Below are positions 3,755 through 59,705 of a DNA stretch of 64,000 nt, piece by piece. Made by a program: the position numbers and the translations under genes. The notes beneath the pieces were generated by a model, which worked only from the letters and a program-made list of their open reading frames with translations, did not search any database and was not told the DNA's origin. Every line of letters starts with the position of its first letter. Positions within the stretch are counted from its first letter, which is position 1. The stretch is from Mesotaenium endlicherianum. Lineage: Eukaryota. The DNA lies in NCBI GenBank assembly GCA_009602735.1, contig WELA01001729.1, forward strand, positions 62,001-126,000, given 5' to 3'.

Positions 3755-3862
3755 CTGCTCAATCATAAACACAATGCAGTTAGTGAAGTCATGATATTTT
3801 GCTGCTACTGAGTGCCCTGTATGAAGAGGAACGCGATCGGGAGAGTTCCTAGTGTGAAATAC
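3755..3862 (-). other. Predicted 108 nt intron ending just upstream of the ORF3 type II ATG
   Basis: Minus strand reads CAAG|GTATTT ... CACTAAC ... GAGCAG|G ATG. Confidence 0.6.
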
Positions 3863-19870: not shown

Positions 19871-19884
19871 GCCAGGAGCCTACC
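19849..19884 (+). promoter_or_regulatory. Predicted -1 ribosomal frameshift signal of family B
   Basis: A_AAA_AAC in the gag frame (19849-19855); pol lies in the -1 frame; hairpin GGTAGGC/GCCTACC at 19866-19884. Confidence 0.75.
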
Positions 19885-23197: not shown

Positions 23198-23295
23198 NNN
23201 NNNNNNNNNNNNNNNNNNNNNNNNNNNNNNNNNNNNNNNNNNNNNNNNNNNNNNNNNNNNNNNNNNNNNNNNNNNNNNNNNNNNNNNNNNNNNNT

Positions 23296-27492: not shown

Positions 27493-29178
27493 CGAACCTT
27501 CACGTGAGTTCGGCTGACGCGGAGTGCCGACTAGGTCGATTTACCTAGAAGTTTCGATTTAGCCTAGCGCGTCTAAGACTAGTAATGTCGATGCATGTAT
27601 GTGGACGTCAATTCGGCCCGACACGTCGGATTAGACTGATCTAGCTTACTCACGAATATTCTGGAAGGGACGATTTGACGAACACTTAGGAAAATCCGTA
27701 GCTTCGTCCTAGAGAGGAGCACTTTAGGCAAAAATTTATAAATAGGCATAACTTCTTTGCTTCTTATCAATTTTCACTTCTGTAAATTTCTACGGGTTTG
27801 TTATGACAAGGCGTTTCATCCTACATCATTTGTGAGCAGTTTTTTGCTACTCAATATGCGCCAAGAAGTGGAGAGAATGGTGCGAGTTGTTATGGGGAAC
27901 GCCGCTTTGACGAGTTTGGCACCGACACCTGTTGCGCCACCGATTCATGTTAACCCAGTGGTGCAACCAGTTATTCCACCCGCATCAAGAGTGCGTGCGC
28001 CTAAGCCTAAAGTTTATACTGGAGAGCGTGGATCGCCGCCTGTTCATCAATGGATTTTTGGAGTGAAGAAATTTATGGAGTACTCTGCGCTCACACCCGA
28101 CAGGCAAGTCGCCTTTGTCATAACTTTGCTGCAAAAGAGTGCTGGAGCTTGGTATGAACGAGAAGAGCAGCTGTCTAGAGTTCCTGCTACTGCTGATCAG
28201 CTCTTTGAAGGCTTGAAGAGGCAATTATAACCTATTGCACCCGAGGCTACCGCTCGAGATCTATTGGTGCGCCTTCGTTAACGAGGAAGCGTTCAGTATG
28301 TATCGCGCTTCAACGAGCTGGTGCTTCAACGTCCATCCATGCACGAGTTGGAGATGATGGACAATTTCAAGAGAGAACTCAAGTCAACTGTGGCCAAAGA
28401 AGTGGCGCTTAAGGACCCTACCAGTCTTGGAGAAATGATGGCATTGGCAACAAAGGTCGACGCTGTGGAGTATAGTCAGAGGCAGTGGGGCAGCCACAAT
28501 TTTGGAGGATATCGACACTTTGGATCTCAAGCGCCAAGCACGAGTGTTCAAGGTCCAAAACCTATGGAGTTGGGACTTGTGCAGCACCAGCGCAGGCAGC
28601 AGAATTTTAAGCCGAGAGGATCTTGCTATAATTGTGGCAAGCTTGGACATCTGGCTCGAGACTACCATGTGAAGACGAAGCAACCTCAACACCAGGAAAA
28701 AGGAGGACGCCAGTAAGTCGTTGTGGGGTGTCTATTGGCGTGAAGACGGAAACTCACAAGGAGGCTACCCCTAGGAGCATGCCGAGAAGCAAAGGACGAG
28801 ATATTGGCAAGCCTATCATCGTGGAAGGAGTGGTCGACAGCAACAAGGCGAATCCCTGTGCAGAAGCAATATGAGCCTAAGGAGGCAATTTTGGCGAATG
28901 GGCGGAGACTCAAGTGTGGTGCACTTACGGAAGCTATTCACGTGGAAGTAGCGGGGCACCGGCGTAAGGAAGTTATGGAGCGGGCAGAGTTGGGTCACCA
29001 TGAGGTAATATTGGGCCGACCATGGCTGAGAAAAGCCAACCCTCAAGTGCACTAGAGCACAAGACAAGTGAAGGTCCAAGGGCGTGATGGTCGAATGGAG
29101 ACAGCGAAACAGGTGGCGGTAGATACGACCACAAGTAACTGCCTTCTGTCGAGCCTACAAGTTAAGAAGCTATGCAGG
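27493..29178 (+). mobile_element. Family C element, 5' part (partial 5' LTR 27493-27854, degenerate gag 27856-28716, protease region)
   Basis: LTR fragment is the reverse complement of ~26873-27244; Gag motifs GPKPMELG and CYNCGKLGHLARD; ILGRPWL; ends at TSD GCAGG 29174-29178. Confidence 0.85.
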
Positions 29179-29928
29179 TGTAATGAATCAGTATATTAGT
29201 GGATATAATATTCATTTAAATCTAATAGTTAATTAAGATCAGCCTGCTGAACTTTAGTTAATAGTCAGTCTGCTGGACTTTACTTTAGTTAATAGTCAGT
29301 CTGCTGGACTTTACATAATTATCAGTTTAATGACTCGGCCGAACGCAACAGGCTGAAGTCAACTTAAGTCAGCTTGCTGACACATTCTTTGACAGCCAGC
29401 TGACTTCCGTGCTCGGTAGCAGCGAACTGCCTTGATATGCATCTAAGTACGACCTGCTAGATGAATGGCCAGATGACATCCCCATGATGGATGGCTATTC
29501 GGGATGATGGGAGATGGCGGTGGATTTGGTTAACCGAGGTCCTACCAACGTGGTTAACTCCCGGGTAGGCGGTGCCATCGCACTGACCGTTGAACAGTAA
29601 ACTCATTCCATGTACATATGCTAGGCATTGCTCTCGAGTTCGGCATTCGGAAACGAGGCCAACTCTCTTGTACAGCTTACTGAGAGAGATCTGAATCCAA
29701 GGCGAGAAGCCATTGATACGCACTGTCTTCTAACCTTGCTTATGTATGAGTTTACTGATTTGCATCATTGATGCTAGTTTACTCGCATTTGACTTACGAG
29801 TATTATTCCCTGCTAGTGTATTGTCCTTTGCCGTTTAACTAGTTAACGGAAATACCATAAAGATTACTTGCTGATATAAAGATCTTTATTAATTGTTAAT
29901 CGCCTATTTGGTAAGTCGATTCATTTCA
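29179..29928 (+). repeat. Family A LTR (750 bp) with a 31 bp tandem duplication
   Basis: TGTAATGAATC..GATTCATTTCA terminal inverted repeat; TTAGTTAATAGTCAGTCTGCTGGACTTTAC occurs twice. Confidence 0.95.
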
Positions 29929-29929
29929 G

Positions 29930-29941
29930 TGGTATCGGAGC
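29930..29941 (+). promoter_or_regulatory. PBS, tRNA-iMet type
   Basis: TGGTATCGGAGC. Confidence 0.92.
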
Positions 29942-29962
29942 AGTTATCACAGTCTTCTTTGT

Positions 29963-31441
29963 ATGGTAAGGACAAGGTCTCAAACTAGCAACTCCCGAGA
30001 CATGGAGAACCAGGATAACGAGAATGTCGAAAACCAGGCGGAAAGCCATGTAGCGGGAAACCGTACCTATTCGGAAGCAGTAGCGGATACTGCAGCTAGG
30101 GAGGCTGCAGATGAGGCAGCTGCTATTGCCTCAGTCGCAGCTCAGCAAGCTGAGGAGGAGATAGCCAGACTAGAAGCTGAACAAGTAGCAAAGGCCGCTG
30201 AAGATATACAAAGGAGGGAAGGACAGCCAGCTGACGAGCGCACTGTTGAAGAACTTATGGCATCAAGGGCCAATGTTCTGAACCCACCTCCTGCCGTACA
30301 ACTCAATGTACCCCTAGGTCAAATACGTGACCGGCTGAATGCGGCAGGAATTGCTGCTGCAGGAGCAAGAGGGATTGTTGAGGACACTACTCAGCGAGTA
30401 GATGCCAATGCTGCTGCTGCATTTGCTAATCTACCACCCCAAAATGTAGACTTGGGAGCATTGTTCGTTCAGATGCAGTCGCAAATGGCGACCATGTATC
30501 AGTCCCAGCAGGAGGACAAAAGAATCATAATGTCCCTACTCCGGGACAGAGACCAACTGGGGTCTCACACCACTAGTGGTGGTGGCCGAGGGCCTAGTAA
30601 GCCCAAGCCGAAACCTCCCCAGGACTATGATCCTGAGGGAAACAGAAAATATTACCTGATCAAGTTTCTCGCGGATGTTGAGCAGTGGCTGGAGAACTAC
30701 CCAGAACTGCAAGATTACGAGAAGGTCAGGCACACCGGTGCGCTACTGAAAGGCAGTGCCGCAGACTGGTGGCTTTACTGGAAGGAAGAGCGTAAGGCTC
30801 GGCAACTCGGTGACCCTACGTGGGTAGAGTTTGTCGAGAAGTTGCATGAGAAGTTTGATGTCATCAACCAGCAGGAGAAAGCTATCTATGCGATGATCTC
30901 CCTGACACTGAAGCAGACCACTTCAGTTGCTGAGTTTGCTCAAAAGTTCCAAGAGAACATGATGAAGCAGCCTGATTTGCCAGAACGGTATAGGATAGCA
31001 TACTTCAGGTATGGCTTGAAATCCGAGGTCTCTGGTCATTTTGCTGAGAAAAAGTATGAGAAACTGGCTGACTTGATCCAGGATGCTGACGCCTGGGATC
31101 AGCAGCAGTTCAATCACAAGCGCCAGAGTAACGCTTTGGTGTCTAAGATTGTCAAAAAGCCCCACGGTTCCTACAATGCAGTTGAAGGAGACCAGGCTGA
31201 GGATAATCAGGGTGATGAATATGAGTATGAGTACAATGCTATTCAGTCTAGAGGTAGAGGTGGTCCCTCTCGAGGTGGCTATGGAAGGGGTGGTGGTAGG
31301 ACTAAGCCGAGACCAGCCTCAGCAAAATCTACTTGCTACCATTGTCAGCAGAAAGGCCACTACAGAGAACAGTGTCCGGTCAAGCACCTGCCTAAGGTCG
31401 AGAGAAAAGACCAGCCTTTAAAAGACAGCAACAGTCAGTAA
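29963..31441 (+). CDS. gag: Family A Gag (492 aa)
   Basis: Intact ORF; capsid-like core, RGG-rich tract, [14 protein letters not shown] knuckle; protein identical to 53847-55325. Confidence 0.95.
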
Positions 31442-31464
31442 TCCAGTCTACTGACTGTGAGGAT
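31417..31464 (+). promoter_or_regulatory. Predicted -1 frameshift signal: slippery heptamer plus hairpin/pseudoknot
   Basis: T_TTA_AAA 31417-31423 in the gag frame; 7 nt spacer; stem ACAGTCAGTA/TACTGACTGT 31431-31458; loop ATCC can pair with GGAT 31461-31464. Confidence 0.82.
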
Positions 31465-34400
31465 GCTAGAGATAGTGAGTCGTCACTAGCTGCCCTCGTA
31501 GCAGGTATTATGGGTCCTGCTGAACTGGATTCACTATGCATGCCTGACAACCAGATAAAGGAGACCATCAGCAATATAGACGTCCAGAGAGTGCACACTC
31601 TGGATGCTCTTGTTCCACCTGATGTCCAACATTTCTTTGCTACGTCAGGAGAACAATGCGAAAGTCAGGAAAAGACAGTCCCCCCTATCCTACTGCATTG
31701 CATGATTGCAGGTAGGAAGGTGAGGGCATTTGTTGACGGAGGGGCGTCACATACTTTTATCCACAAGGACTTAGTTAAGCGGCTAAGGCTGCCTACTGTC
31801 ACCCAAGGGAATAGAAAAATATTCCTTGGAGATGCCTCAAGTATCCCGGGAGGAGTTATAACCAAGCCTATTGAGGTCCAGTTAGGTTCTGGCATTGCAG
31901 TTCTAACTGAAACGCTTACATTTGAGGTACTCAACACTGGCTTTTATGATCTCGTGCTAGGCAGGTCCTGGCTTAATAGACATCAAGCTGAAGTGTGTTG
32001 GAGCAGAGGTACAGTTAAAGTGAGAGGAGCCAGTGATGGGCAGACTGACTTGGCACCCACCAGTGCTCTTCCTCTTGTCCTGTGTGGATGGCAAATGAAG
32101 GAAAAGAAGAGGCTTCCAGAAGGATGCAAGTTGCTGAATGCAATGGAGTTCGTCAAAAGCTGGAACCAGAAGGAAGACAGAATGTTCTGTCTGCTGCTAA
32201 GAGAGGTACCTCCTCAACCTGAAGAAGTGGTTGAGAAAAAGGTACACCCTCCGGAACACCCTACTGCTGCAAACATTGTTGCTCAGTACACGGATGTGTT
32301 TAATATGCCTCCAGGACTACCCCCTAAGCGGGAAGTAGATCATAGGATTGATTTATTACCTGGTAGCCAGCCACCCTGGCAACGCACGTATGGCTTGTCT
32401 TATTTGGAGAGTGAGGAGTTGAAAACACAGATTGCAGAGCTGGAGGAAAATGGTTACATTTCTCCCAGTAAATCACCGTACGGCGCACCTATCCTATTTG
32501 TTAAGAAAAAGGATGGCAGTATGCGGATGTGTGTGGATTACAGAGCCCTGAACAGAATTACAGTAAAGAACAAGTATGCTTTACCCAGAATCGAGGACTT
32601 GCTTGATACCCTGTCTGGCGCTAAGGTGTTCAGTAAGATAGATCTCAAGAGTGGTTATCATCAAATCAGAATTGCTGAGGGGGATGAACACAAGACTGCT
32701 TTCCGCACACGTTATGGACACTTTGAGTTCAACGTGATGCCATTTGGACTGACTAATGCTCCTGCTACCTTTATGGGTGCTATGAATGACATTTTCAGGC
32801 CTTATTTGGATAAGTTTGTGCAAGTTTTCCTGAATGATGTTTTAATTTTCTCTAAAGATGAAGCTCAGCACACTTAAAGAAAGTGCTGGACACTCTGCGG
32901 AAAAATCACTTGTATGCAAAGATGAGCAAGTATGATTTCTTTAAGGAAAGTATTGAATTCTTAGGCCACGTTGTCAGTAAAGAGGGCATCAGTGTGGATC
33001 CTAAGAAAGTCCAGACCATAAGGGACTGGCCAGTACCACAGTCGGTCTCTGAAGTTAGATCCTTCCTCGGGTTGGCTAACTACTATAGGAGATTTATTGA
33101 GAATTATTCCACAAAGGCCAGTAAACTGACTGACCTTACTAAGAAAGACATCGGGTATGTGTGGGGGGAAGAGCAGCAGGCTGCCTTCCAGACCCTTAAA
33201 GATGCCCTTTGTTCTGCCCCAGTGCTAGCCGTGTATGACCCCAGCAAACCGGTGCAGGTGGTTACTGATGCCTCTGATTTTGCCATGGGTGCTATTTTGT
33301 TGCAGCCTGCTGACAAAACCACAAAGGATGGTAAGGTACGGCAGGAGTGGCATCCTGTGTTGTATGAGTCTATGAAATTTAATCCAGCGGAGATTAATTA
33401 CTCAGTGCATGATAAAGAGCTGCTAGCTATCATTCATGTACTCAAACAGTGGAGAGCATACTTACATGGTAAAGCTTTTAAGGTGATTACAGATCATCTA
33501 GCTCTGACCCACTTTCAGAAGAAGTCCAAGCTGTCGAGGAGGGAGAACCGCTGGAGCCAGATGCTGGAGCAGTTCCAAGTCCAGATCGACTACAAACCAG
33601 GGAAGTTGAATCCTGCTGATGCACTCTCTAGAAGACCTGACTTGCAAGAAAGGAACTTTAGTCAGCATACTGTAGATAAAGTCCTGTGTGCACTCACTTC
33701 ACTAAAGGTGAAAAAGTCCTTCCTTGAACAACTTAGGAAAGCCTACCTTTCTGACCCAACATTTGAGCCCAGCCCCACTACTGGTGTGTGTCGTGCTACT
33801 GCACTCGGGTATAAGCTCAAGGGAGGGGTCTGGGTGACTGAAACCACTTCAGGCAGGCTGAAGCTGGTCATTCCTAATAATTTGGAAATAAGGTCTCTCT
33901 TACTGAGTCAAGCTCATGACAGTCTCCTGGGTGGACATTTGGGGCAGGCCAAAACTGTTGGCAAACTGGCAAAACATTATCATTGGGAGGGGTTACCCCG
34001 GGAGGTCTTGAAATATGTCAAGTCCTGTGACCAGTGTCAGAGAAATAAGTCTCGGCACACACCACCCGGAGGTCTCTTGCAACCGCTACCCATCCCAGCG
34101 GGACGCTGGGAAACTATATCCATGGACTGGGTGGTCTCACTACCAAGAACTGCCAACGGGCATGATTCAATACTGGTAGTCGTGGATAAACTGACAAAAA
34201 TGGTCATTTTTATCCCCACAACTGTCAAAGTGACTGCACTCGAAACAGCGAGACAGTTTTACAACCATGTAGTATGCCAACATGGGCTCCCTTCTAATAT
34301 CATCTCAGACAGAGACTCAAAATTCACCTCTAAGTTCTGGAGAGCTTTAATGGGGTTAATGGGAGTCAAACAGCTGCTCAGCACAGCAAACCACCCTCAG

Positions 34401-35219
34401 ACTGATGGGCAGACTGAAAGAACTAACCGAGTTCTGCAGGAGGTGCTGAGAGCATATATTAACCAAAAACAAGATAATTGGGATGACCTGTTGCCTCAAA
34501 TTCAGTTTGCGGTCAACAGTGCGGTGCACGCGTCAACGGGCAAAACTCCTTTTGAACTCAGCCTGGGTAGAGTCCCTAAGTCTCCTCTAGATGTGCTAGG
34601 GGAATCTTTAACTCACCCTGAAGGGATTGACAACCCGGTCTCCCTCCAGTTAACTCAGGAGTTTGCTGACACCCTGTCAGAAGTCCAACGAAACTTGCAC
34701 ACGGCCCAAGAAAACCAACAAAAATACGCTAATCAACACCGTCGGGAACTGACATTTTCCAAGGGGGATTTAGTCAAACTGCATTCTCAGCACCTGTACC
34801 TCCCTGGTGTGGTCAAGAAAAAGCTTGGCCCTGTCTGGGTCGGTCCATATTCGGTGGTCCGTCGTGTCGGTCAGAATGCTTACAAACTGAACATGTCAGC
34901 TGAATACAAGGGGCACCCGGTCTTTAATGTCTCCTTCCTGGAACCGTACATCAAAGGTGATACACTGTTCACAGGTCGGTTCCCTGTCCAACCGGGACCG
35001 GTCCCCGCTGTCCGGGACGGCGACCCTGAGGAATATGAGGTCGATGAGATTTTAGACGCTCGCTCGGTCCGTCGATCGTCTAAATATGTCATGAAATACC
35101 TCATTCGATGGAAGGGTTACGATGCCTCTGGGGACACTTGGGAGTTTAAGGACCACTTGACCAATGCCAAAGGGGCGTTGACACGGTTCCACCTTCGGGC
35201 CGCTGGAGTCCCTCCATAA
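31423..35219 (+). pseudogene. pol: Family A Pol of A1, inactivated (RT catalytic FLDD changed to FLND; 7 bp frameshifting deletion at ~32874)
   Basis: ORFs 31510-32877 and 32883-35219; comparison with 50062-53778 shows loss of GAACACT. Confidence 0.93.
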
Positions 35220-35268
35220 CTGTCATTTCAGTTGACACGGGAAGGTGACAGGCGGTCCTGTCTCCATT

Positions 35269-35281
35269 TAAGTTGGAGGGG
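35269..35281 (+). promoter_or_regulatory. Internal PPT-like duplicate directly after pol
   Basis: TAAGTTGGAGGGG, same as the terminal PPT 37263-37275; preceded by hairpin GACAGG/CCTGTC 35247-35262. Confidence 0.7.
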
Positions 35282-35382
35282 AAAATATATGACAGTTAGT
35301 GAGCGAGAGCGATAAAAACACACTCATACGTTTATGTGTAGCGCATCGCAACTACGTCAACTTTTAGCAATCATCCTGTAAG

Positions 35383-35485
35383 GTAAACAGCAGCGAAGCC
35401 ACTATACTAAATACTAACATACTTCCTGCAATCCCTATGACAAAGGTCCATATCCTACTAACTTGTGCCCTGGTTACATGTGCAG
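35383..35485 (+). other. Predicted 103 nt intron ending just upstream of the ORF3 ATG
   Basis: AAG|GTAAAC donor, TACTAAC at 35456-35462, TGCAG|G ATG (ATG at 35487). Confidence 0.65.
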
Positions 35486-35486
35486 G

Positions 35487-37163
35487 ATGGCGCCCACCAC
35501 ACAAAAGGAGGACAGAAAGCGCAAGGCAGAAGAAGCCAGGAGGACAATGGAGCAATACCAGAAGGAGCTGGCGGCGACGTCCCTCACCAGGAGAGAACAA
35601 GAAAGGGTCCGCAAACAACAAGAGGCGGCAGAAGAGGCACAGAGGAAGAAGGATCAGGAAGCGGAAAACCTCAGGAAGGCTGAGGAGGAGAGACAGAAGA
35701 AACAGCAAGAAGAAGCGGCAGCGGCAGAAGAGGAGAAAAGAAAAAAGATTGAAGCGGACAGACAGAAGAGCTTGGCCACTTACAGGTATACTGTGGTGGG
35801 TGGCCAAAACTTCGATAACCTGAAGGAAGCATTGCTGGCAGCCCAGGAGATCAACAGGCTGGAACAGACAACACTGCTACAGAAGGAAGGAGCTACAGCA
35901 CTGGACAGGTACATCGAGACACACACCGGCGTGGTCCTTTACGAAGATTATGCTAAGATGGTGGGCTATACAGCAGAGCAGGCCCGGTATCTCGCAGATG
36001 ATTCAGAGGACAAGCCGGTCCCCATACCGGGAATAGTGGGAGATCAGAGACTCATCCGGATGGTGAGCATGCGGCCCGATAGCTTTAAGGATACGGTATT
36101 CTACCTCACACTCCTGCCAGCTTACAATGAAGTTGAGAGAAGGAGCTGGGAGTACTTGGCCAGGGAAGCAGGACAGCAGATGTTCTCTCCCCACTGGTTC
36201 CCGTGTAAACTGAGGAAGGCTGAGCACGGACCCCAGTACTACCAGCAGCCAACAGACTGGAGGTGGATGACCGTCACAAATAAGAAGCAGGAGTGTGACC
36301 GAGCCCAACCGGATGACTTCCACTATGGCCTAGACGGCTATCTCATCCTACCACCTCACATTGCCCCTTGGGACCCCAGGCTGAATGGATGCCTGAGCAA
36401 TATGAATGCAGAGACCAAGGAACATAGGAGGAGGGGAAGAGAGTACTTCTCTAAGGGAAAGCATGCCTTTGTCAAATGGGCAAAGAATGCAGGCCGGATA
36501 GATATCAGTAGGCTGAAGGCCAAGCAACCTCCAGCGCGCCCTAAGAAAGGGAGGTCGGTAGACTACTCCATGTCTACTAGGGAGCAGGACGACTTAGTGG
36601 ACGAGACCCCTACTCTCTCCGAGGAGGAGGATGAGGAGGATGAGGAAGAAGAACAAGGCAGAGGAGAAGCATCAGCAGCAGGTACTCAGGATACCCAGGG
36701 ACAGGCAGGGGCGCTTCCTAAAGAACCACGATCAGGTGTTTGGAATGTGATCCCCGTTATGGCGACAACTGGACCCCGCGCTCGCTCCCCCAGCCCACCT
36801 GCCCAAGCAGGGGAAGAAGCTGATCTGACTGTACTGGGCAGCAGACACAGACAGAAATCCCCAGAGGACAGGGGTGCCAGAAGAGGGACACGCGGGTGGG
36901 CCAGAGGTATGCCAGCCTCCCCCTCCGCTCAGGGGCATGTACCTCTAGCCAATGTATTTCAGCATCCTACTGGAATGCCTGTCTATGTGGGAATCAACAC
37001 CCAAGTGGTTGAAGAGCAGGCCACCATCCTCCGTTCTCCTCGAGGGCCAACTTTAGAGCAAACAGGGTTCTTTAGAAGGCCAGCTGACAGACCTAGAGGG
37101 CTGTCCAGATCTAGGTCCAGATCTCCGTCTCCTGACCCTGAAGCCCCAGGAACAACCCCTTAA
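35487..37163 (+). CDS. ORF3 type I, accessory protein of unknown function (558 aa from ATG 35487)
   Basis: Intact ORF between pol and PPT; charged coiled-coil-like N-terminus, aromatic-rich conserved core, acidic tract, RS/SP-rich tail; five homologous copies in the window. Confidence 0.9.
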   Translation: MAPTTQKEDRKRKAEEARRTMEQYQKELAATSLTRREQERVRKQQEAAEEAQRKKDQEAENLRKAEEERQKKQQEEAAAAEEEKRKKIEADRQKSLATYRYTVVGGQNFDNLKEALLAAQEINRLEQTTLLQKEGATALDRYIETHTGVVLYEDYAKMVGYTAEQARYLADDSEDKPVPIPGIVGDQRLIRMVSMRPDSFKDTVFYLTLLPAYNEVERRSWEYLAREAGQQMFSPHWFPCKLRKAEHGPQYYQQPTDWRWMTVTNKKQECDRAQPDDFHYGLDGYLILPPHIAPWDPRLNGCLSNMNAETKEHRRRGREYFSKGKHAFVKWAKNAGRIDISRLKAKQPPARPKKGRSVDYSMSTREQDDLVDETPTLSEEEDEEDEEEEQGRGEASAAGTQDTQGQAGALPKEPRSGVWNVIPVMATTGPRARSPSPPAQAGEEADLTVLGSRHRQKSPEDRGARRGTRGWARGMPASPSAQGHVPLANVFQHPTGMPVYVGINTQVVEEQATILRSPRGPTLEQTGFFRRPADRPRGLSRSRSRSPSPDPEAPGTTP

Positions 37164-37276
37164 GGTGACACGCTGAAGAGGCAGTCAGTAAGGGAGGCTG
37201 GTCAGGTTCAGTTCCCTTATTTAAAATTTCTGCAGTTTAATGTTGTCGAGGCGACAACAAGTTAAGTTGGAGGGAT

Positions 37277-38028
37277 TGTAATGAATCAGTATATTAGTGG
37301 ATATAATATTCATTTAAATATAATAGTTAATTAAGATCCGCCTGCTGAACTTTAGTTAATAGTCAGTCTGCTGGACTTTACTTTAGTTAATAGTCAGTCT
37401 GCTGAACTTTACATAATTATCAGTTTGCTGACTGAGTCGAAAGCAGCAGGCTCGAAGTCCATATAAGTCAGCTTGCTGACACATTCTTTGACAGCAAGCT
37501 GACTTCCGTACTCGGTAGCAGCAAACTACCCTGATATGCATCTAAGTTCGGTATGCTAGATGTATAGCCAGATGACATCCCTATGATGGATGGCTATTCG
37601 GGATGATGCGAGATGGCGGTGGATTTGGTTATCCGAGGTCCTACCAACGTGGTTAACTCCCGAATAGGCGGTGCCATCGCACCGACCGTTGAACAGTAAA
37701 CTCATTCCATGTACATACGCTAGGCATTGCTCTCGAGTTCGGCATTCGGACACGAGGCCAACTCTCTTGTACAGCTTACTGAGAGAGATCTGAATCCAAG
37801 GCGAGAAGCCATTGATACGCACTGTCTTCTAACCTTGCTTATGTATGAGTTTACTGATTTGCATTATTGATGCTAGTTTACTCTCATTTGACTGACGAGT
37901 ATTATTCACTGCTAGTGTGTTGTCCTTTGCCGTTAAACCAGTTAACGGAAAATACCATAAAGATTACTTGCTGATATAAAGATCTTTATTAATTATTAAT
38001 CGCCTTTTTAGTAACCGGATTCATTTCA
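37277..38028 (+). repeat. Family A LTR with chimeric 3' tip
   Basis: Follows the PPT; tip GCCTTTTTAGTAA resembles LTR 15876-16592; followed by GTATG. Confidence 0.93.
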
Positions 38029-38084
38029 GTATGTGTGGGGGGAAGAGCTGCAAGCAGCCTTCTAGACCCTTAAAGATGCCCTAT
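38029..38084 (+). pseudogene. 56 bp piece of host copy H pol trapped between two insertions
   Basis: GTATGTGTGGGGGGAAGAG..GATGCCCTAT encodes YVWGEE..DAL; begins with TSD GTATG and ends with TSD CCTAT. Confidence 0.88.
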
Positions 38085-38886
38085 CGAAATGAATCGACTT
38101 ACCAAATAGGCTATTAACAATTAATAAAGATCTTTATATCAGCAAGTAATCTTTATGGTATTTTCTGTTGATTAATTCAACAGCAAAAAATAATATACTA
38201 GCAGTGGACAATACTCGTAAGTCAAATGGAAGTAAATTAACATCAATAATACAATCAATAAACTCACATATAAGCAAGGCTAGGAGATAGTGCATATCAA
38301 TGGCTTCTCGCTCTCGATTCAGATCTCTCTTAGAAGCAGTACAGGAGAGTTGGCCTCGTTTCCGAATGCCGAACTTGAGAGCAATCCTAGCATATGTATA
38401 TGAAATGAGTTTACTGTTCAACGGCCAGTGCGATGGCACCACCTACCCGGGAGTTAACCACGTTGGTAGGACCTCGGTTGACCAAATCCACCGCCATCTC
38501 CCATTATCTCGAATTGCCATCCATCCGGAGGATGTCATTTGCCCATTTATCTAGCACACCACACTTAGATGCATATCTAGGCAGTTCGCTGCTACCGAAT
38601 ACGGAAGTCAGCTGGCTGTCAAAGAATGTGTCAGCAAGCTGACCTAAGTTGACGTCAGCCTGCTACTCCCGGCTGAGTCATTAAATTGATTATTTAATAG
38701 AGTCCACCAGACTCAATATTAACTAAAGTTCAGCAGGCTGAACTTATATAACTATTATATTTAAATGAATATTATATCAACCAATATACTGATTAATTAC
38801 AATCCCTCCAACTTAACGTGCTGTCGTCTTGACAACACTAACACTAGTAACAGCGTGCTGTCCCTTCCGTCCCCAGCCTCCTGCCA

Positions 38887-40545
38887 TTAGGAGGGAGATG
38901 TCCCTGGGGCCCTACACTCAAGAGAGCCAGACCTCGTCCTGTCTTGGGGTCTGCTGAAGCCTGAGGGATCCGCGTAGGGGCCTCGCAAAGTACGCAGTAA
39001 GTGGGCTGTTTCCTCGTGCACAGTCTGAAAATGAAGGGAGGCAGCCTTCTCCTGGGCAGCCCTCAAACTGACAGGTACATATACCAGCATCCCAGAAGGA
39101 TCTTGCATGACATGAGCCAAAGGCATATGCTCTCTCTGCGAGGGAGATGTTGGCAGGCCTTTGGCTATCTCCCTAGCAGCCCTCCTGTCTGCCCTGTCAG
39201 ACTGGGTCTCCGTGCCTGCAGATGGGCTCTGTCCTCTGGCAGTTCCCAGCCAAGTGATGTCCTCCTCTTCAGCGAGCTGTTGCAAGGCCATCCCAGTCTT
39301 CTCCCTTACAGGGGATGTGACAGGTGTCAGGACCACAGCGGAGCAAGTGTCCTCCTCCTCGCCTTCCTCTTCTTCTTCTTCTGACCCCTCCTCCTCTCCT
39401 TCCCCTGGTTCCTCTGAGACCGCTGGGGTCTCCTCTGTCAACTGCTCTAACTCTTCCCGAGAAAATGAATATTCCACTGACCATCCCCTTTTGGGTGCTG
39501 GTGGAGGCTGTTGAGTTCGGACCGCATATAGGTCCTTTTCTCCCTGCTTGCTTGCCCATTTGGCATAAGCATGCTTCCCTTTAGAGAATGACTCTCGGGC
39601 CCTGCTCCTGTCATCGTGCATTTTTTGGCTCATGCAGTCTCTCCCTCCATCCAGTCTTGGGTCCCAAGCTGCAATGTGAGGAGGCAACAGTATGTTCCCC
39701 TGTAGGCCTGTTAGGAAATCCTCATCCTTCGCCTTGTCATTCTGCTGGTCCCTCATATTAATGGTCATTCACCGCCAATCGGTGGGCTTCTGGAAAAAGG
39801 CAGGGTCTGTCCTTTTCAGAGTGCACGAGTACCAGTGCCTTGCAAAGTCCAGCTGACTGGTTTTCCTGGCCAAGAACTCCCAGCTTCTCCTCTCCACCTC
39901 ATTATATATGGCCTTGAACCGGTTATGGGGTGTAGAGTCCTTAAAGCTGTCCTCGTCCATGGGGATCATCCTGATGACCCTGTCCTTTCCCCAGGTACCC
40001 GGGATCGATACAACTCTTGTCTCATTCACTTGGGCCATTGCCTTGGCCTCTCTGACTGTATACCCTACCATCCTGGCATAATCGTGGTAGAGGAGTAGCC
40101 CTGTGCTGACCTCGATATACTTGTCAAAGTGTTCGAATGTCTCCCTTTCCCTCTGTAGGATGTTCTGCTGTGCCTCACTGCGACTTCTCTGGGCATACCT
40201 GAAGGCCTCCTCCAGTAGATGAAAGCCCTTGCCCAGTACTGTGTAGCGGTAGCTGTTGATTCTCCTCTGTTGTTCTTCTTCAGCCTGCTGCTTCTGCCTC
40301 TCCTCAACTTGCCTCTCCTCTTCCGCCTACTTGGCCTCCTCTGCAGCTTTTCTGTCCAGTTCTTCCTGCCTCAGCCTGGCTTGCTTCTCCTCCTCCTTCT
40401 TCTTCTGTGCCTCCCGCTGTTATTGGAGTCGTTGTGATTCCCAAGCGGAGATGAAGGATGATTTGATGTCGCCACGGAATTACAAGTATCCTGCATGTGC
40501 CTCTTCCGCTCTACTCTTCCTCTTAAGTTCCGACTTCTGGGTCAT
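38887..40545 (-). pseudogene. ORF3 type II, full span but with stop/frameshift
   Basis: ORFs 39769-40071 and 38887-39768 are separated by one TGA; ATG at 40545; C-terminal motif HMPLAHVMQDPSGMLVYV homologous to type I HVPLANVFQHPTGMPVYV. Confidence 0.88.
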
Positions 40546-40546
40546 C

Positions 40547-40648
40547 CTGCTCAAACACAATGCAGTCAGAAGAGTCATGATACTTGGCCGCTATTGAGTG
40601 CCCGTGGTTAAGAAGAACGTGATAGGGAGAGTCCCTAGTGTGTAGTAC
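40547..40648 (-). other. Predicted 102 nt intron upstream of the ORF3 type II ATG
   Basis: Minus strand reads CAAG|GTACTA ... TTCTGAC ... GAGCAG|G ATG. Confidence 0.6.
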
Positions 40649-42683
40649 CTTGTGTGAGTGAGCATAAGAGAGAATTGAGTTAGAGAGAAAAAGTGAGTAT
40701 GAGCGCAGGTTGAGTGTGTAAAATGGTTATAAAATTTGCCTGGCTGATCCCGAAACGGAATACACTCCCTCCAACTTAATTTTAAAGGTGGGTTGCCTGT
40801 CACAACTGTCACTATCTGTCACTAACTGTCACATTCCCCTCTAACTTATACGGAGACAGGACCTCCTGTCACCTGTCCGTAACCACTGAAATGACAGTTA
40901 GGGAGGGGTGCCAGCCGCCCAAAGGTGGAACCATTTCAACGCCCCTTTGGCATTGGTCAGCGGGTCTTTAAATTCCCAAGTGTCCCCAGAGGCATCGAAC
41001 CCCTTCCATCCGACCAGGTACTTCATGACATGATCGACGGACAGAGCGAGCGTCTAAAATCTCCTCCACCTCATATTCCTCGGGGTCACCATCCCAGACA
41101 GCGGGGACCGGTCCCGGTTGGACAGGTAACCGACCTGTGAACAGTGTGTCACCTTTGATGTATGGTTCCAGGAAGGAGACATTAAAGACCGGGTGACCCT
41201 TATATTTTGCTGACATGTTCAGTTTGTAAGCATTCTGACTGACACGGCGCACCACCGAATATAGATCGACGTAGACAGGACCAAGCTTTTTCTTGACCAC
41301 GCCAGGTAAATACAGGTGCAGAGAATGCAGTTTGACCAAATCGCCGTTAGAAAATGTCGATTCTCGACGGTGCTGATTAGCGTGTTTTTGTTGGTTTGCC
41401 TGGGCATTGTGCAGGTTCTGTTGGACTTCTGACAGGCAGTCACCAAACTCTTGTGTTAACTGGAGGGAGATCGGATTGTCAAAGACTCCCCTAGTACATC
41501 TAAAGGAGACTTAGGGACTCTACCCAGGCTCAGTTGAAAAGGAGTCTTGCCCGTTGACGCGTGCACCGCACTGTTGATCGCAAACTGGATTTGACGTAAC
41601 AGGTCATTCCAATTATCTTATTTTTGGTTAGTATAGCCTCTCAGTACCTCTTGCAGAGCTCGATTACTTCTTTCAGTCTGCCCATCAGTCTGAGGGTGGT
41701 TTGCTGTGCTGAGCAGCTGCTTGACTCTCATTAACCCCATTAAAGCTCTCCACAACTTAGAGGTAAATTTTGAGTCTCTGTCTGAGATGATATTAGAGGG
41801 TAGCCCATGTTGGCATACTACTTGCTTGTAGAACTGTCTCGATGTTTCGAGTGCAGTAACTTTGACAGTTGTGGGGATGAAAATGACCATTTTTGTTAAT
41901 TTATCCACTACTACCAGTATCGAATCATGCCCATTGGCAGTTCTTGGTAGTGCTACCACCCAGTCCATGGATATTGTTTCCCAGCGGCCAGTTGGGATGG
42001 GCAGCGGTTGTAAGAGGCCCTTCGGTGGTGTGTGCCTAGACTTATTCCCTTGGCACTGGTCACAGGATTTTACATATTCTAAGACCTCCCGAGGTAAGTC
42101 CTCCCAATGATAATGTTTTGCCAATTTGCCAACATTTTTGGCCTGCCCCAAATGCCCAGTAAACTGTCATGTGCTTGACTCAGTAAAAGGAACCTTATTT
42201 CCAAGTTATCAGGAATCACCAACTTCAGCCTGCCTGAAGTGGTTACAGTCACCCAGACCCCACCCTTAAGTCGATACCCAAGTGCAGTAGCAGGACACAC
42301 ACCATCAGTGGGGCTGGGCTCAAATGTTGGGTTAAAAAGTTAGGCTTTCCTAAGTTGTTCAAGAAAGGACTTTTTCACCTTTAGTGAAGTGAGTGCACAA
42401 AGAACTTTGTTTACAGCATGCTGACTAAAGTTCCTTTCTTGCAAGTCAAGTCTTCTAGAGAGTGCATCAGCAGGATTCAACTTCCCTGGTTTGTAGTCAA
42501 TTTGGACTTGAAACTGCTCCAGAATCTGGCTCCAGCGGTTCTCCCTCCTTGACAGCTTGGACTTCTTCTGAAAGTGAGTCAGATCTGGATGATCTGTAAT
42601 CACCTTAAGAGGTTTACCATGTAAGTATGCTCTCCACTATATGAGCACATGAATGATTGCTAGCAGCTCTTTATCATGTACAG

Positions 42684-45600
42684 TGAAAGGGGCAGAGTGC
42701 CCTTGTGGAAGCGTAGTAACTCACGAGGAAAAGAACTAGTTGCAATCATACTAAAGAGTGCAGCGGTATATCACTAAGAAAACTTAGGAAAATTATCCAA
42801 CATTTTGAGTAGCAAGAAACTGCTCACAAATGAACTAGGATGATAGGCCTTGTCATTACAAACCCGTAGAAGTATACAGAAGTGACAACTGATAAAAAAC
42901 AAAGAAGTTATGCCTATTTATAATTTTCTGCCTAAATGCTCCTCTCTAAGTGGAAGCTACGGATTTTCCTAAGTGTTCGTCAAATCGTCCCTTCCAGAAT
43001 ATTCGTGAGTAAGCCAGATCAGTCTAATCTGACGTGTCGGGCCAAATTGACGTCCACATACATGCATCGACATTACTAGAATATTATATCTTAGACGCGC
43101 TAGGCTAAACCGAAACTTCTAGGTAAATCGACCTAGTCGGCACTCCGCGTCAGCCAAACTTACGTGAAGGTTCGAGTTCATTCTAACGGGCCAAATCGCT
43201 CGACGCTGTCGGTCAATCCGACGGTCGCGCTCACCGCGAACTAAGGACAGTCGTCAACCGACCTCAAAACTAATTAAACCTCAGTAATCCGTAACTCTCT
43301 CAATACTTGACCAAATTCAACGAACTTTATATCAAAATGACCACAAATATGCACTCTCCACTACTGTACAATCAAAACATACTTTCATGAAACTCAAAAA
43401 TGCACTTTATAAACCTATGACCTTTTTACATCATCCCCCTCCTCAAGATGCGACGTCCTCGACGCATTCTGCAAATAACGTCTCAACTTACTCTTACAAT
43501 GAGTCAAGTTGGCCTCTGGCTCCCAAGTGTTGTCGTCCGCATGGTAGCCTTTCCACTTGACCAAATACGCTTGGACAAATCGTTGACCTCGCTTGACTCG
43601 TCGATCGCCGACAATTGCCTCCACTTCATACTCCAATACATCATCGATCTCGACCGGTGGTGGCTGTGTAGGTAGTCGTCCAGGATGTCCTTCATTCGGG
43701 TCAACGTATGGTTGCAAACAACTGACATGGAACACATCATAGATACGCCAGCCTGAAGGAAGTTCCAACTTGTAGGCCACTGGATTCACCTGCTTGAGCA
43801 CTACAAAGGGACCTGTAAACCGTGCCCGCAGTTTCCTCTTGCCTGTGAAAGGTAGGTTCTCTGTGGACAAGAGTACTTTGTCGCCCACATGGAATGTCAC
43901 TTCCCTCCTGTGCTTGTTAGCATGCTTGACCTGCTCTTCCTGTGCCTTCCGAATACACGTCTTCGCCATATTCCAAGTCTTGGCCATCTGCTCCATAAAA
44001 GCTTGTGTAATAGGAAACTGAGTCTCCTTGGCCTTCTCCAACAAGATGTTCCCTGGATGATATACTTCTCTTCCATAAACCATAGCGAATGGTGACTGCT
44101 TGGTCGATCCCTGCATGCTGTTGTTGTAGGCAAACATCCTGGCAGCTTCCTGTCCCACTCTGAAGGGTCTTCTATAGTGAAACTCTTGAGCACCTCTTGC
44201 AAAGTTCTGTTGAGCCTCTCACGGTGTCCGTCTGTCTGAGCATGATAGGAAGTGCTCATACTCAGCTTGGTCCCCATCAAAGTAAACAATGACCGCCAAA
44301 AGTTGCTAGTAAACCTTGGATCCCGATTTGAAACAATCACCTTCGGCAACCCATGTAGCCTGAAAATATGATCAAAGAATAGCCGTGCCACATCTATTGC
44401 CGTAGAAGTCTCCTTCATGGGAATGAAGTGAGCCATCTTGCTGAGTCTGTCAGACACAACCCATCCTGCATCGTGCCCTTGACCACTGATTGGTAACGAT
44501 GTGATGAAGTCCATAGCAATCTGCTCCCAAGGATACTCTGGAATAGGCAGGGGTCGCAATGNGAATGTACCTCCCTTCTTTTGATTGGGTGTCTTATTCC
44601 GCTGGCACGCATCGCAACTCCTGATCCACTCCTCGATGTCCTTGTCCATATTTCTCCAATAGTACTCCCGCTTCAGCACACTTGCCGTCTTCTCGCTTCC
44701 AAAGTGTCCTGCATATAAGCAATCGTGATGCTCCGCAAGTAGTAAGTCTCGTAGCTCCTTGATGTCAGGTACCACCACTCTCTTGGAATCACCATAATAC
44801 CATATGCCGTCCTTCTTCTGCATACTTGAAATGAATCGACTTATCAAATAGGCAATTAACAATTAATAAAGATCTTTATATCAGCAAGTAATCTTTATGG
44901 TATTTTTCGTTAACTGTTTTAACGGCAAAAGGACAACGCACTAGCAGTGAATAATACTCGCCAGTCAAATGAGAGTAAACTAGCATCAATAATGCAAATC
45001 AGTAAACTCATACATAAGCAAGGTTAGAAGACAGTGCGTAACAATGGCTTCTCGCCTTGGATTCAGATCTCTCTCAGTAAGCTGTACCAAAGAGTTGGCC
45101 TCGTTTCCGAATGCCGAACTCGAGAGCAATGCCTAGCGTATGTACATGGAATGAGTTTACTGTTCAACGGTCAGTGCGATGGCACCGCCTACCCGGGAGT
45201 TAACCACGATGGTAGGACCTCGGTTAACCAAATCCACCGCCATCTCCCATCATCCCGAATAGCCATCCATCATAGGGATGTCATCTGGCCATTCATCTAG
45301 CATATCCTACTTAGGTGTATGTCAAGGCAGTTCGCTGCTACCGAGTGCGGAGGTCAGCTGGCTGTCAAAGAATTGGTCAGCAAGCTGACTTATATAAACT
45401 TCAGCCTGCTGCTTCCGGCTGAGTCATTAAACTGATAAATATGTAAAGTCCAGCAGACTAAATATTAACTAAAGTTCAGTAGGCTGAACTTAATTAACTA
45501 TTATATTTAAACGAATATTATATCTACTAATATACTGATTCTTTACAATACTCGAGTTGGACTCAGCTGCTCCACCATCAGCAAACTCTGGGTCCTCCTC

Positions 45601-47285
45601 ATAACCTCTCTGAAGCTTCTTCTTGAAGTCCATACTCTCCTTGATGACCGAGACAGCTGCAAGGTCACACCTTCTGGATAAAGCATCTGCAGGGTTGATC
45701 TTCCCAGGTGATTACTCAATCTTGTGGTCGAACTGTTGCAGAAACTCCATCCACCTTGCTTGTCTTGGTGTCAACGTTGGTTGCGTCATAAACTTCTCCA
45801 AGCTCTTGTGGTCGGTCTTGATGAACACCTTCCGGCCGTCCACATAACATCGCCAAATCCTCAAAGCTTGGATAATAGCCAACATCTCCCGCTCGTGTGC
45901 TGCATAGTTTTGCTCAGCAGGACTCAACTTCTTGCTCTCATATGCTTCAGGCTGCAATCCTTTGCCCTGGTCTTGGAGAAGAATGGCTGCCACTGCAAAA
46001 TTTGATGCGTCCGTGATGATGGTGAAAGGAAGCTCTAAACTTGCAATTGCCAACACGGGTGCCTATGTCAACAGCTTCTTAATCTTCTCGAAGGCTTGCT
46101 GCTCCTTGTCACCCCATAGCCACTTCTCCTGCTTCTTCAACATGTCCATGAGCGGTGCACACACCTTGGCAAATCCTTCAATGAAATGTCGATAATAATT
46201 CGCCATGCCGAGGAAACTCCTGAATTGATGAATATCAGCAGGCACCGGCCAATCTCTGACTGCTTGCATCTTCTTCTGCTCCACCTTGACTCCTTCGGCT
46301 TCCACTATATGTCCAAGAAATTCGACTTCATTGAGACAGAAGTCGCACTTGCTCATCTTCCCATACAGCTTTTGATCTCTCAAGACCTCCAACATCTTCC
46401 TCAGATGCTCCACATGCTCTTCCAAGGTCTTTGAATAGATCAGGATGTCGTCCAAAAATAGCACCACAAACTGGTCCAAGTAGGGTCTGAAGATACTATT
46501 CATGAGTCCCATGAATGTTGCAAATGCATTAGTCAATCCAAAAGGCATGACCGTGAACTCAAATAAACCATAGCGAGTCCTGAAAGCAGTCTTCTGAACG
46601 CCTGCTTCCGCAATCCGTTCCTGGTGATAGCCACTCCTCAAATCGATCTTCAAGAAATACTTCGCCCCGACAAGCCTGTCAATTAACTCGTCCACTCGTG
46701 GAAATGGGTACCTGTTCTTGATNNNNNNNNNNNNNNNNNNNNNNNNNNNNNNNNNNNNNNNNNNNNNNNNNNNNNNNNNNNNNNNNNNNNNNNNNNNNNN
46801 NNNNNNNNNNNNNNNNNNNNNNNNNNNNNNNNNNNNNNNNNNNNNNNNNNNNNNNNNNNNNNNNNNNNNNNNNNNNNNNNNNNNNNNNNNNNNNNNNNNN
46901 NNNNNNNNNNNNNNNNNNNNNNNNNNNNNNNNNNNNNNNNNNNNNNNNNNNNNNNNNNNNNNNNNNNNNNNNNNNNNNNNNNNNNNNNNNNNNNNNNNNN
47001 NNNNNNNNNNNNNNNNNNNNNNNNNNNNNNNNNNNNNNNNNNNNNNNNNNNNNNNNNNNNNNNNNNNNNNNNNNNNNNNNNNNNNNNNNNNNNNNNNNNN
47101 NNNNNNNNNNNNNNNNNNNNNNNNNNNNNNNNNNNNNNNCTTCTGAGCAAGGGGATCAGACACCACTACTTGCTCCTTCGGCGATGTACATTCGCCCAGG
47201 CTGTTAGGATTCACGCTTGTTCCATCTGATGACCTGGCCAGGGCCACCGAAACAAGGTACATCTCCTTCACCCGATTCGCCCTGC
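42684..47285 (-). mobile_element. Family C element, 3' part (RT, RH, IN, chromodomain, PPT, 3' LTR 42684-43430)
   Basis: FLDDIL RT 46063-46720, RH 45712-46056, IN 43897-44826, chromodomain EYEVEAIV..WKGY..NTWEP; PPT 43431-43444; starts with TSD GCAGG (CCTGC at 47281-47285); N gap 46723-47139. Confidence 0.9.
44827..45547 (-). repeat. Family A solo LTR with TSD ATACT
   Basis: ATACT at 44822-44826 and 45548-45552; no PBS or PPT adjacent. Confidence 0.93.
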
Positions 47286-49794: not shown

Positions 49795-50061
49795 CCTGCA
49801 CATGTAACCAGGGCACAAGTTAGTAGGATATGGACCTTTGTCATAGGGATTGCAGGAAGTATGTTAGTATTTAGTATAGTGGCTTCGCTGCTGTTTACCT
49901 TACAGGATGATTGCTAAAAGTTGACGTAGTTGCGATGCGCTACACATAAACGTATGAGTGTGTTTTTATCGCTCTCGCTCACTAACTGTCATATATTTTC
50001 CCCTCCAACTTAAATGGAGACAGGACCGCCTGTCACCTTCCCGTGTCAACTGAAATGACAG

Positions 50062-57900: not shown

Positions 57901-58261
57901 CGATAGACCACCTTAACTGCCATTTCAATAGACATGGGAAGGTGACAGGGCGGTTGTTTCTCCATTTAAGTTGGAGGGAAATGTGACAGTTAAGTGTCAC
58001 CATAGTGACAGATGTGACAACCAGGCCCACCTTGAGCAAAGTTGGAGGGTGTCCACCACTTGGAAGGAGGGAGGGACCAGTACATGAACAAATCACTCAA
58101 CTCACCCTGCACACACATACCTTCGTTTATTCTCATCACGCTACAGCTCAATTAACTCCTAGTACCCACTCTGTAGAATAAGGGAACAACTCTGCTGTAA
58201 TAATACAAACTTACTCCTCTTTCTGCATCTATTGTGACAATGAATGATATCCTACTAACTT

Positions 58262-59705
58262 GCTGCGGAGGAAGAAAGAAAGAAGGAGGAAGCTAAAAGG
58301 CAGAAGAGCGTGGCCACTTACAGATATACTGTGGTGGATGGCCAAATCTTTGATAATGTGAAGGAGACACTACTGGCAGTCCAGGATATTAATCGAATTG
58401 CCAAGCAAACAGTGTTGCGGAAGCAGGGAGCTGAAGCTCGGGATAGGTATATTGAGACACGCACTGGGGTTGTCCTCTACAAAGATTATGCCAAGATGGT
58501 GGGGTATATAGCGGAGCAGGCGCGGTTCTTTGCTGATAACTTGGAAGATAAGCCAGTACCAGTACCTGGCATAGTGGAGGATCAGTGGCTCATCGAAATG
58601 GTGAGCATGCAGCCCGATGGCTTTAACGATGTCTTGTTTTCCCAGACGTTGCTGCCAGCCTACAATGAAGTTGAGAGAAGGAGCTGGGAGTACTTGGCCA
58701 AGAAAACACGACAGCAGATGTTCTCTCCCCATGTTCCCTTGTAAGCTGAAAAATGCTAAACATGGGCCACAATACTACCAGCAACCTACAAACTGGAGGT
58801 GGATGATCGTCCCTAACAGGAAGCAGCACTGTGAACGGGCCCACCCGGATGATTTCCACTATGGGCTGGACGGTTAGCTTATCCTGCCACCTCACATTGC
58901 TCTTTGGGACTTCAGGCTTAATGGATGCCCGAGTAACATGAATGAGAAAACCAAGGAGAACAAGAGGAGAGGACAGGACTACTTCTCTAAGGGGAAGTAT
59001 GCCTTTGTTAAATGGGCAAAGAATGCAGGCTGGATAGATATCAGCAAGTTGAAGGCCAAGCAACCCCCAGCTCATCCTAACAAAGGGGGGTCACTAGATT
59101 TCTCCATGTCTACCAGGGAGCAGGATAACTTGGTAGATGAGACCCCTACCCTCTCTGAGGAGAAGGATGAGGAGGATGAGGAGGATGAGGAAGCGGAACA
59201 GGGCAGGGGAGAAGCATAAACCTCTGGAGCTCAAGAGATCCGGGGACAGGCAGAGGCAGGAACTCCTAGGGGGCCAAGAGCAGGAGGAAGGACTGTGACT
59301 CCTACTGTGGAGACAACGGTACCTCGAGCTCGATCTCCCGGCCCACCTGCCCAAGCAAAGGAAGAGGCAGAGCTGACTGTACTTGGTAGCAGAGAGAGGC
59401 AGAAATCCCCAGAGGACAGAGCTCCTAGAAGTGGAACTCGCGGTGTGGCCAGAGGTATGCTAGCCACCCCCTCCAGTCAGGGATGTGTGCCCCTTGCCAA
59501 TGTATTTTAGCATCCTACTGGTTTGCCTGTCTATGTGGGAATCAACATCCAGGAGGTTGAAGAGCAGGCTGCAATCCTCCGTTCCCCTTGTGGCCCCACT
59601 TTAGAGCAGACAGGGTTCTTCAGGAGGCCAGTCGACAGAACTAGAGGGATGTCCAGGTCTAGGTCCAGATCTCAGTCCCCTGATCCTGGAGCCCCAAGAA
59701 CATCA
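58262..59705 (+). pseudogene. Degenerate ORF3 type I of copy H (N-terminus deleted)
   Basis: ORFs 58310-58744, 58938-59219, 59295-59510, 59523-59768 are colinear with ORF3 type I; ATCCTACTAACTTG retained at ~58249-58262. Confidence 0.88.

Follow-up and report, generated by a model that had tools for sequence, protein, structure and literature searches.

Retrotransposons with an additional ORF in sense orientation on their 3′ side are already known, and so are retrotransposons with spliced RNAs or with an internal promoter. The barley element BARE1 (Ty1/copia) carries an alternatively spliced intron of 104 nt, and its packaged RNA is described as a separate, uncapped and unspliced pool in an element that encodes only gag and pol (PMC3735527). 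Penelope and Chlamys-3_cRei possess a 5′ UTR intron that overlaps an internal promoter (bioRxiv 10.1101/2021.04.23.441226). Gene23 of maize Grande and the extra ORFs of Tat/Retand elements lie between pol and the 3′ LTR, in antisense orientation and in non-chromoviruses; gene23 has its own promoter and encodes a nuclear protein without database match (PMC7264820). The env-like ORFs of Bagy2, Athila and SIRE as well as eORF-3′F of Tekay are also located between pol and the 3′ LTR, in sense orientation (PMC7264820; PMC6317226), and either splicing or an internal promoter has been proposed for such sense 3′ ORFs (PMC7264820; PMC6317226; PMC2829016). According to the available text of the REXdb survey, only one of seven chromovirus groups, Tekay, has sense 3′ ORFs (18%), and none is listed for the groups with an aromatic-cage chromodomain, i.e. 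Chlamyvir, Tcn1 and Galadriel (PMC6317226). Lastly, the gypsy-type element Cer1 of C. elegans produces from a spliced mRNA an orphan accessory protein, CERV, whose export function has been shown (PMC10309623).

The present analysis concerns a window of 64,000 nt from Mesotaenium endlicherianum (contig WELA01001729.1), in which a Ty3/gypsy family carries a third ORF (ORF3) preceded by a predicted intron. Like BARE1, this family would keep a GT-AG intron of about 100 nt in an LTR element, with similar junctions (CAG/GTAT and CAG/GA in BARE1, which replicates via unspliced RNA). However, BARE1 is a copia element whose U-rich intron, established with cDNA, is located at the end of gag and serves a Gag-only RNA (PMC3735527), whereas the present family is of the gypsy type and its predicted non-coding intron lies before a third ORF, is not U-rich and is deduced from sequence comparison. 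As in Penelope and Chlamys-3_cRei, a 5′ UTR intron tied to a promoter would precede an ORF and be kept through retrotransposition, but those elements are Penelope-like and not LTR elements, and their intron precedes the main ORF and not an accessory gene (bioRxiv 10.1101/2021.04.23.441226). ORF3 resembles Grande gene23 in its position between pol and the 3′ LTR and in its lack of database match, as well as in having its own promoter and a nuclear location, both predicted here. In antisense ORFs like those of the Grande type, an intron would be kept automatically, whereas a sense intron such as the one predicted before ORF3 is not. CERV is likewise an orphan accessory protein of a gypsy-type element, but ORF3 displays neither a sequence link to it nor any functional sign. 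In the literature as available to us, we found no chromovirus in which a sense 3′ ORF is preceded by a 5′ UTR intron; single cases may sit in Additional files 1 and 3 of PMC6317226. Overall, the family combines intron keeping as in BARE1 and Penelope with an accessory gene as in Grande, and is a member of none of these.

The window consists of nested LTR retrotransposons. Two copies of the ORF3 family, A and B (98.3% alike), are near-complete, and three further members (C, D and E) are partial (Table 1). LTRs, a primer-binding site (PBS), polypurine tract (PPT), gag and a pol of PR-RT-RH-IN order are all present, Pfam scores gag, PR-RT-RH-IN and a chromodomain, and the latter (PF00385) lies above the cut-off at the C-terminus of the integrase in copies A and B. 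The family is thus a Ty3/gypsy chromovirus. By eye, the aromatic cage of its chromodomain is kept (Tyr/Trp/Tyr), and among plants, chromodomains of this kind are reported only from algae, mosses and club-mosses (PMC6317226), so that the elements themselves point to a seed-free green plant or an alga as the probable host. Database searches with pol returned only distant relatives, with about 61% at most over RT-RH among the best-scoring ones; they include named sequences from Closterium, Haematococcus, seed plants and fungi. The named clades at issue are Chlamyvir, Tcn1, Galadriel, Tekay, Reina and CRM; in a quick tree of 59 rows that holds no references for these clades, the family falls outside the seed-plant rows (support 100) and apart from the fungal rows (99), inside no supported group. 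Tcn1 elements are mostly self-priming (83%; PMC6317226), in contrast to the tRNA-type PBS of the ORF3 family. We take the PBS of copy A to be of the initiator-Met tRNA type.

Table 1. Coordinates of the features of the ORF3 family in the window
Feature	Copy	Position	Strand	Remarks
Element	A	29179-38030	+	near-complete
5′ LTR	A	29179..29929	+	donor-like GTAAGT at 29911-29916
Primer-binding site	A	29930..29941	+	presumed initiator-Met type
gag	A	29963..31441	+	Ty3 capsid, zinc knuckle
pol	A	31396..35219	+	PR-RT-RH-IN-chromodomain; two frames in A, one frame in B
Internal exact copy of the 11-nt 3′ polypurine-tract core	A	35270..35280	+	ORF3 cassette diverges just downstream
ACACACTCA block	A	35318..35326	+	common to types I and II at equal distance from ATG
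Predicted 5′ UTR intron, type I	A	35383..35485	+	103 nt, before ORF3
Branch-point motif TACTAAC	A	35456..35462	+	16-nt block around it identical in diverged copy E
ORF3, type I	A	35487..37163	+	558 aa, intact
3′ polypurine tract and 3′ LTR	A	37264..38030	+	
Element	B	47285-56110	-	near-complete
Predicted intron	B	49796..49898	-	identical to A; ORF3 48118-49794; ACACACTCA 49955-49963
Predicted 108-nt intron, type II	C	3755..3862	-	ORF3 start 3753; ACACACTCA 3923-3931
Predicted 102-nt intron, type II	D	40547..40648	-	ACACACTCA 40711-40719
Intron remnant, decayed type I	E	58183..58262	+	branch block kept; acceptor and ORF3 start deleted
Internal polypurine-tract core copies		35270-35280, 50001-50011, 4041-4051, 40767-40777, 57968-57978, 58039-58049		

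A sequence-only reading of this DNA had proposed that a conserved intron ends one nucleotide before the ORF3 start codon in four copies. The four intervals have the claimed lengths (103, 103, 108 and 102 nt), show AAG/GTA at their 5′ border and GCAG/G-ATG at their 3′ border, and contain the announced CTRAC branch motif, whose A is 20-26 nt from the 3′ end. The order and spacing are those of a U2-type intron, i.e. a GT donor and a CURAY branch about 20-40 nt before a YAG acceptor. The distance from the donor to the start of the branch motif is 76, 80 and 80 nt. Type I is free of AG dinucleotides from the branch to the acceptor, and a single GAG lies 3 nt upstream of the acceptor in type II. In type I, a second possible donor is found 5 nt upstream (CCT/GTAAGG, 35378) and would give an intron of 108 nt. 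The motifs thus occur in all four copies, but their value as four observations does not hold: since A does not differ from B anywhere in the 270-nt spacer and C is close to D (81% alike inside the intron), they represent only two lineages. Likewise, the statement that the pol-ORF3 spacers of types I and II are not alignable applies only downstream of about 35290, as the stretch between the pol stop and the internal polypurine-tract copy can be aligned in all copies, at 77-89%.

The sequence-only reading had omitted a fifth copy (copy E), which lies near 58.2 kb and is decayed. Its 16 nt around the branch motif are all kept (16/16), against 54% identity in the interior of the interval. Its donor place reads GG instead of GT, and the acceptor and ORF3 start are gone in a deletion of about 260 nt. 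Since this deletion spans from behind the branch to about codon 80, an intron loss was rejected as its explanation. Copy E also carries stops and a frameshift, and decay may explain its missing donor GT.

The synonymous sites of ORF3 are near saturation between types I and II (dS 1.6-1.8; only 32-33% identical in the core), and an alignment of the intron interiors scores like one of shuffled sequences (z -0.2 and -0.3). We searched, with no splice prior, for words that A, C and D share at matching offsets (tolerance 10 nt). The 6-letter words returned were only ACACACTCA and AAGGTA (15 nt covered compared to 1.6 expected, P 0.0015), the 5-letter words add TTGTG and GCAGG (P 0.005), and A with C alone adds ACTAACT. 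Counted from the ATG, these words are located at -169 (ACACACTCA), -107 (AAGGTA), -24 (TTGTG) and -5 (GCAGG) in A, C and D, and at -30 (ACTAACT) in A and C only; over the whole search, shuffling A gives P 0.0015-0.011. In order, they correspond to the donor, the branch region and the acceptor of the predicted intron, plus one block further upstream. Signals are therefore kept while the interior drifts, as in U2-type introns, except for the donor of copy E. With the geometry fixed by type I, the full set of motifs arose in 7, 4 and 8 of 300,000 mononucleotide shuffles of the spacer (C, D and A, respectively), and donor plus branch alone in 0.05-0.12%; these shuffles preserve base composition only, and the motif set was originally picked by eye. 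Under looser rules, 6 of the 2214 ATGs of the window have a full set, i.e. the four described here and one homologous pol site in two copies. Taken as a whole, these sequence comparisons argue that a real 5′ UTR intron precedes ORF3, which we consider likely.

Alternatively, there may be no intron at all, and the shared words could serve an unspliced ORF3 mRNA as signals of its promoter, start context or N-terminal coding part, completed by chance; this seems rather unlikely. The acceptor word GCAGG before the ATG is also a good start context and in frame also gives Cys/Ser-Arg codons, and each of the three sequences has an in-frame upstream ATG (A, -9; C, -39, with a stop; D, -33). The type II donors are weak (6/11 and 5/11 against the U1 consensus, scores reached by 18% and 42% of the GT sites of the window). 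The T content of the interval (25-30%) is above that of exon 2 and below that of the exon before (30-38%), so that the U-richness over flanking exons, a rule of vascular plants that may not be that of this host, is lacking. Without the demand for an ATG, 13 intron-like sets occur in the window, four of which are the ORF3 intervals and nine are others. However, a reading without intron needs three words that mimic the order and spacing of donor, branch and acceptor in two near-saturated lineages. Furthermore, the places of the upstream ATGs differ, and CTRAC lies in different reading frames in types I and II, so codon conservation does not explain it. A conserved RNA structure was rejected as well, no stable fold being found in intron or spacer (z -1.6 to +0.9).

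The RNA data bear on the same alternative. Parts of three RNA runs (6%, 13% and 24%) and one contig set were mapped on copy A (type I). No read crosses the junction 35382/35486 in the three runs, at bin depths of 0, 0 and about 2, which are too shallow to speak for or against splicing. One contig of run X1 spans 35210-35856 at depth 18 with no gap or joint; the absence of a spliced read and this unbroken contig would be in line with an unspliced mRNA. That X1 derives from RNA is our guess: if it does, the spliced form is rare there, and if it is DNA, it only shows that copies lacking the intron are not frequent. A small number of reads (about 5) from one stranded run cover 35386-35925, mostly on the strand taken as sense, and the bin before 35386 contains no sense-strand read; this counts in favour of the reading preferred below. 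In run X13, 8 reads with 6 different starts show a skip of 289 nt in pol (34695-34983 in copy A coordinates, minus strand). Shifted by one base, this skip corresponds to an opposite-strand GT-AG intron in the integrase of C and D, absent in A and B. It implies that (i) the mapping sees junctions where reads exist, (ii) the host uses TGCAG/G acceptors like the one predicted before ORF3 and (iii) the host is able to splice at motifs that are probably fortuitous. The conserved intron announced by the sequence-only reading is thus supported by comparison but not by spliced reads. Two other patterns were seen among the reads. In two stranded runs, reads of a single orientation cover 34036-35385 and continue into a type II spacer; they could stem from antisense transcription with a promoter inside the spacer, or from a fragment embedded in a host transcript. 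Moreover, at 29928 and 30031 many reads of all three RNA runs exit the element into the same foreign sequence, and we read them as solo-LTR or truncated copies inside host transcripts.

Two routes to a spliced ORF3 mRNA had been put forward, an internal promoter and a subgenomic RNA using a donor in the LTR; the former is favoured by our analysis and the latter stays open. A read-through from pol was rejected, as the pol-ORF3 spacer has stops in every frame; ORF3 therefore needs its own mRNA or an internal entry. We slightly favour the view that the interval is a spliceosomal 5′ UTR intron of an ORF3 mRNA initiated at an internal promoter behind pol, since the proximal donor and the intron length are conserved and ACACACTCA lies about 60 nt upstream. 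This block, which has five matches in the window (both strands), four of them in the ORF3 spacers, is a candidate transcription start or core-promoter element; no conserved TATA box was seen upstream of it. Transcription would start near ACACACTCA and give a first exon of about 60 nt. The interval contains one or two AUGs in each sequence, which splicing would remove, leaving AAGG-ATG with a purine at -3; among four donors tested, only the proximal AAG/GT yields this purine. By analogy with BARE1, reverse transcription would not remove the intron, since the full-length RNA that is packaged would belong to an unspliced pool, and an overlap of the interval with promoter elements may, as in Penelope, lead to selection against intron-less copies.

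The acceptor could instead be joined to a far upstream donor, in U5 of the LTR (29910/29911) or at the gag start (ATG/GTAAG, 29965/29966), so that ORF3 would be expressed from a subgenomic RNA as in retroviruses; a short middle exon that ends at the proximal donor may be included. TTG/GTAAGT is indeed found at 29910/29911 as claimed, 6 of the 8 LTR copies carry GTAAG close to their end (4 of the 8 have the full GTAAGT), both upstream donors score 7/11 against U1, and a TAG shortly before the proximal donor in A, C and E could close a micro-exon. Furthermore, a spliced env-like RNA was reported for barley Bagy2 (PMC7264820). However, such splicing leaves the conserved proximal donor, the constant intron length and the ACACACTCA block unexplained, direct joins leave a T at -3 with the gag ATG out of frame, copy D has no upstream TAG, and no joint from either donor is found among the mapped reads, where sense coverage is low. 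We thus regard a far donor as unlikely. The LTR donor may also play a role in polyadenylation control. Around the gag start (29963-29971), A and B read ATG/GTAAGG, C has GTAACG, and a copy at 16.6 kb has GTG/GTAAGG.

ORF3 is a real gene under purifying selection. Its protein comprises a charged N-terminal part of 95 aa, an orphan core (about 95-350), an acidic stretch and a low-complexity tail; copy C has stops and is cut near 2362, and copy D (38887-40545, minus strand) has 4 stops. The core is 48-49% identical between types I and II. The dN/dS ratio is 0.24-0.27 between types, 0.24 for C vs D and 0.19-0.20 for A vs E, all inside the ranges of pol (0.13-0.30) and gag (0.13-0.36); it is 0.54 for A vs B, where changes are very few. 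Pfam has no family above the cut-off in ORF3; homologs were found neither among 7992 and 3672 word-matched candidates (306-977 aa) nor in viral and metagenome contigs. A profile search against 1.84 billion representatives returned 2 hits at about 1e-5, repeat proteins without real pairwise match, which were rejected. AlphaFold2 yielded no usable model of the core (pLDDT 37), and a fold search with that model came back empty. The DNA pattern of the spacer matched 3 metagenome loci, none of them otherwise similar to the window, and 0 viral loci. In contrast to env-like ORFs, ORF3 lacks a transmembrane segment (hydropathy over 19 residues peaks at 0.7-0.9 in A-D), and an env-like nature was rejected. 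Copies A, B and C have basic NLS-like clusters near residues 10 and 353, whereas none was scored in the damaged D. We predict a nuclear protein that is not inserted in a membrane. In type I, an overlapping Arg-rich frame (35368-35823, plus strand) opens at an AUG inside the intron and has a hydrophobic N-terminus; it is probably a by-product of the purine-rich codons of ORF3.

ORF3 had been described as RS-rich and possibly devoted to the export of unspliced RNA. SR proteins have a long domain of RS dipeptides, usually together with an RRM. The longest RS runs of ORF3 comprise 3 (A), 2 (B), 1 (C) and 2 (D) dipeptides, with 5-8% Ser, and no Pfam family is detected, so that neither the RS-rich description nor an SR or RS-domain protein was retained. 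A related scenario is that the intron is spliced from an LTR-initiated RNA and that ORF3 is a factor of the Rev/CERV kind exporting or protecting the unspliced genomic RNA. The interval is kept in all intact copies, ORF3 has NLS-like clusters and no membrane segment, and CERV of Cer1 does such a job from a spliced mRNA (PMC10309623), but ORF3 has no homolog or RNA-binding domain that we found, and removing 100 nt would leave it about 5.5 kb from the cap. Moreover, BARE1 retains its intron with only gag and pol and no extra protein (PMC3735527), and two other chromovirus families of the window end shortly after pol without an ORF3 homolog. Export by ORF3 is thus not supported, and we consider this scenario quite improbable. 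Our leading guess, a tentative one drawn from the analogy with Grande gene23, is that ORF3 may act in trans as a chromatin or anti-silencing regulator.

This work also revealed that the predicted intron travels in a cassette. The spacer opens with the internal copy of the polypurine-tract core, present once or twice in each of the five copies; the first tract is followed by TG(T)GACAG, which resembles the beginning of an LTR, and C, D and E each contain a second tract copy. When A is compared with D, identity falls just past the internal tract and recovers shortly before the 3′ tract, and the cassettes 35290-37240 and 38830-40830 differ by a dS of about 1.7, compared to 0.19-0.35 for the pol beneath. 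At the integrase end, A and C are closest (92%), yet their ORF3 types differ (68%), and E is the outgroup (82-83%), yet it has a type I ORF3 like A (80%). This conflict of ancestry implies that the intron-bearing cassette was exchanged between backbones. That priming at the internal tract drives the exchange is speculation; Athila4, Calypso and Sireviruses also possess extra polypurine tracts, whose role is unclear, and those of Athila4 and Calypso were reported in the linkers (PMC2829016). A joint reading, doubtful as a whole, would be a chromovirus of the seed-free green lineage with an exchangeable cassette between two polypurine-tract copies, comprising a promoter, a short exon, a sense intron and an orphan nuclear protein. 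Its alleles, far older than pol, would be swapped between co-packaged genomes by plus-strand priming at the internal tract, and the intron would be kept since only the internally started RNA is spliced, ORF3 enforcing this split.

An element that replicates through RNA is expected to lose a sense intron quickly. Keeping such an intron over near-saturating divergence would imply either that the copied RNA escapes splicing or that intron-less copies die out, and a non-coding intron of 100 nt in young, near-intact copies offers a small testable system for this. It may also show how the 3′ extra ORFs of plants are expressed, an open point in reviews (PMC7264820; PMC2829016). Furthermore, ORF3 is a candidate new accessory protein, being an orphan under purifying selection in a kind of chromovirus for which the available survey text lists no 3′ ORFs (PMC6317226). 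As each ingredient is precedented, this extends known biology rather than overturning it.

Some observations concern the other elements of the window and the setting of copies A and B. The two other gypsy (chromovirus) families lie at 18051-23795 and 43415-47334. A separate element at 8762-13257 has an LTR pair at 94% and the same PBS type at 9282; it contains no long ORF of its own in 9282-12742 and is possibly non-autonomous, and its LTR contains the fifth ACACACTCA match of the window. Lastly, the 5 nt before the 5′ LTR of copy A (29174-29178) are the same as the 5 nt after the 3′ LTR of copy B (47281-47285), and the 5′ LTRs of A and B are 99% alike compared to 94-97% for the pair within each element. 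This pattern hints at an inversion or a conversion between inverted copies; the other two flanks differ.
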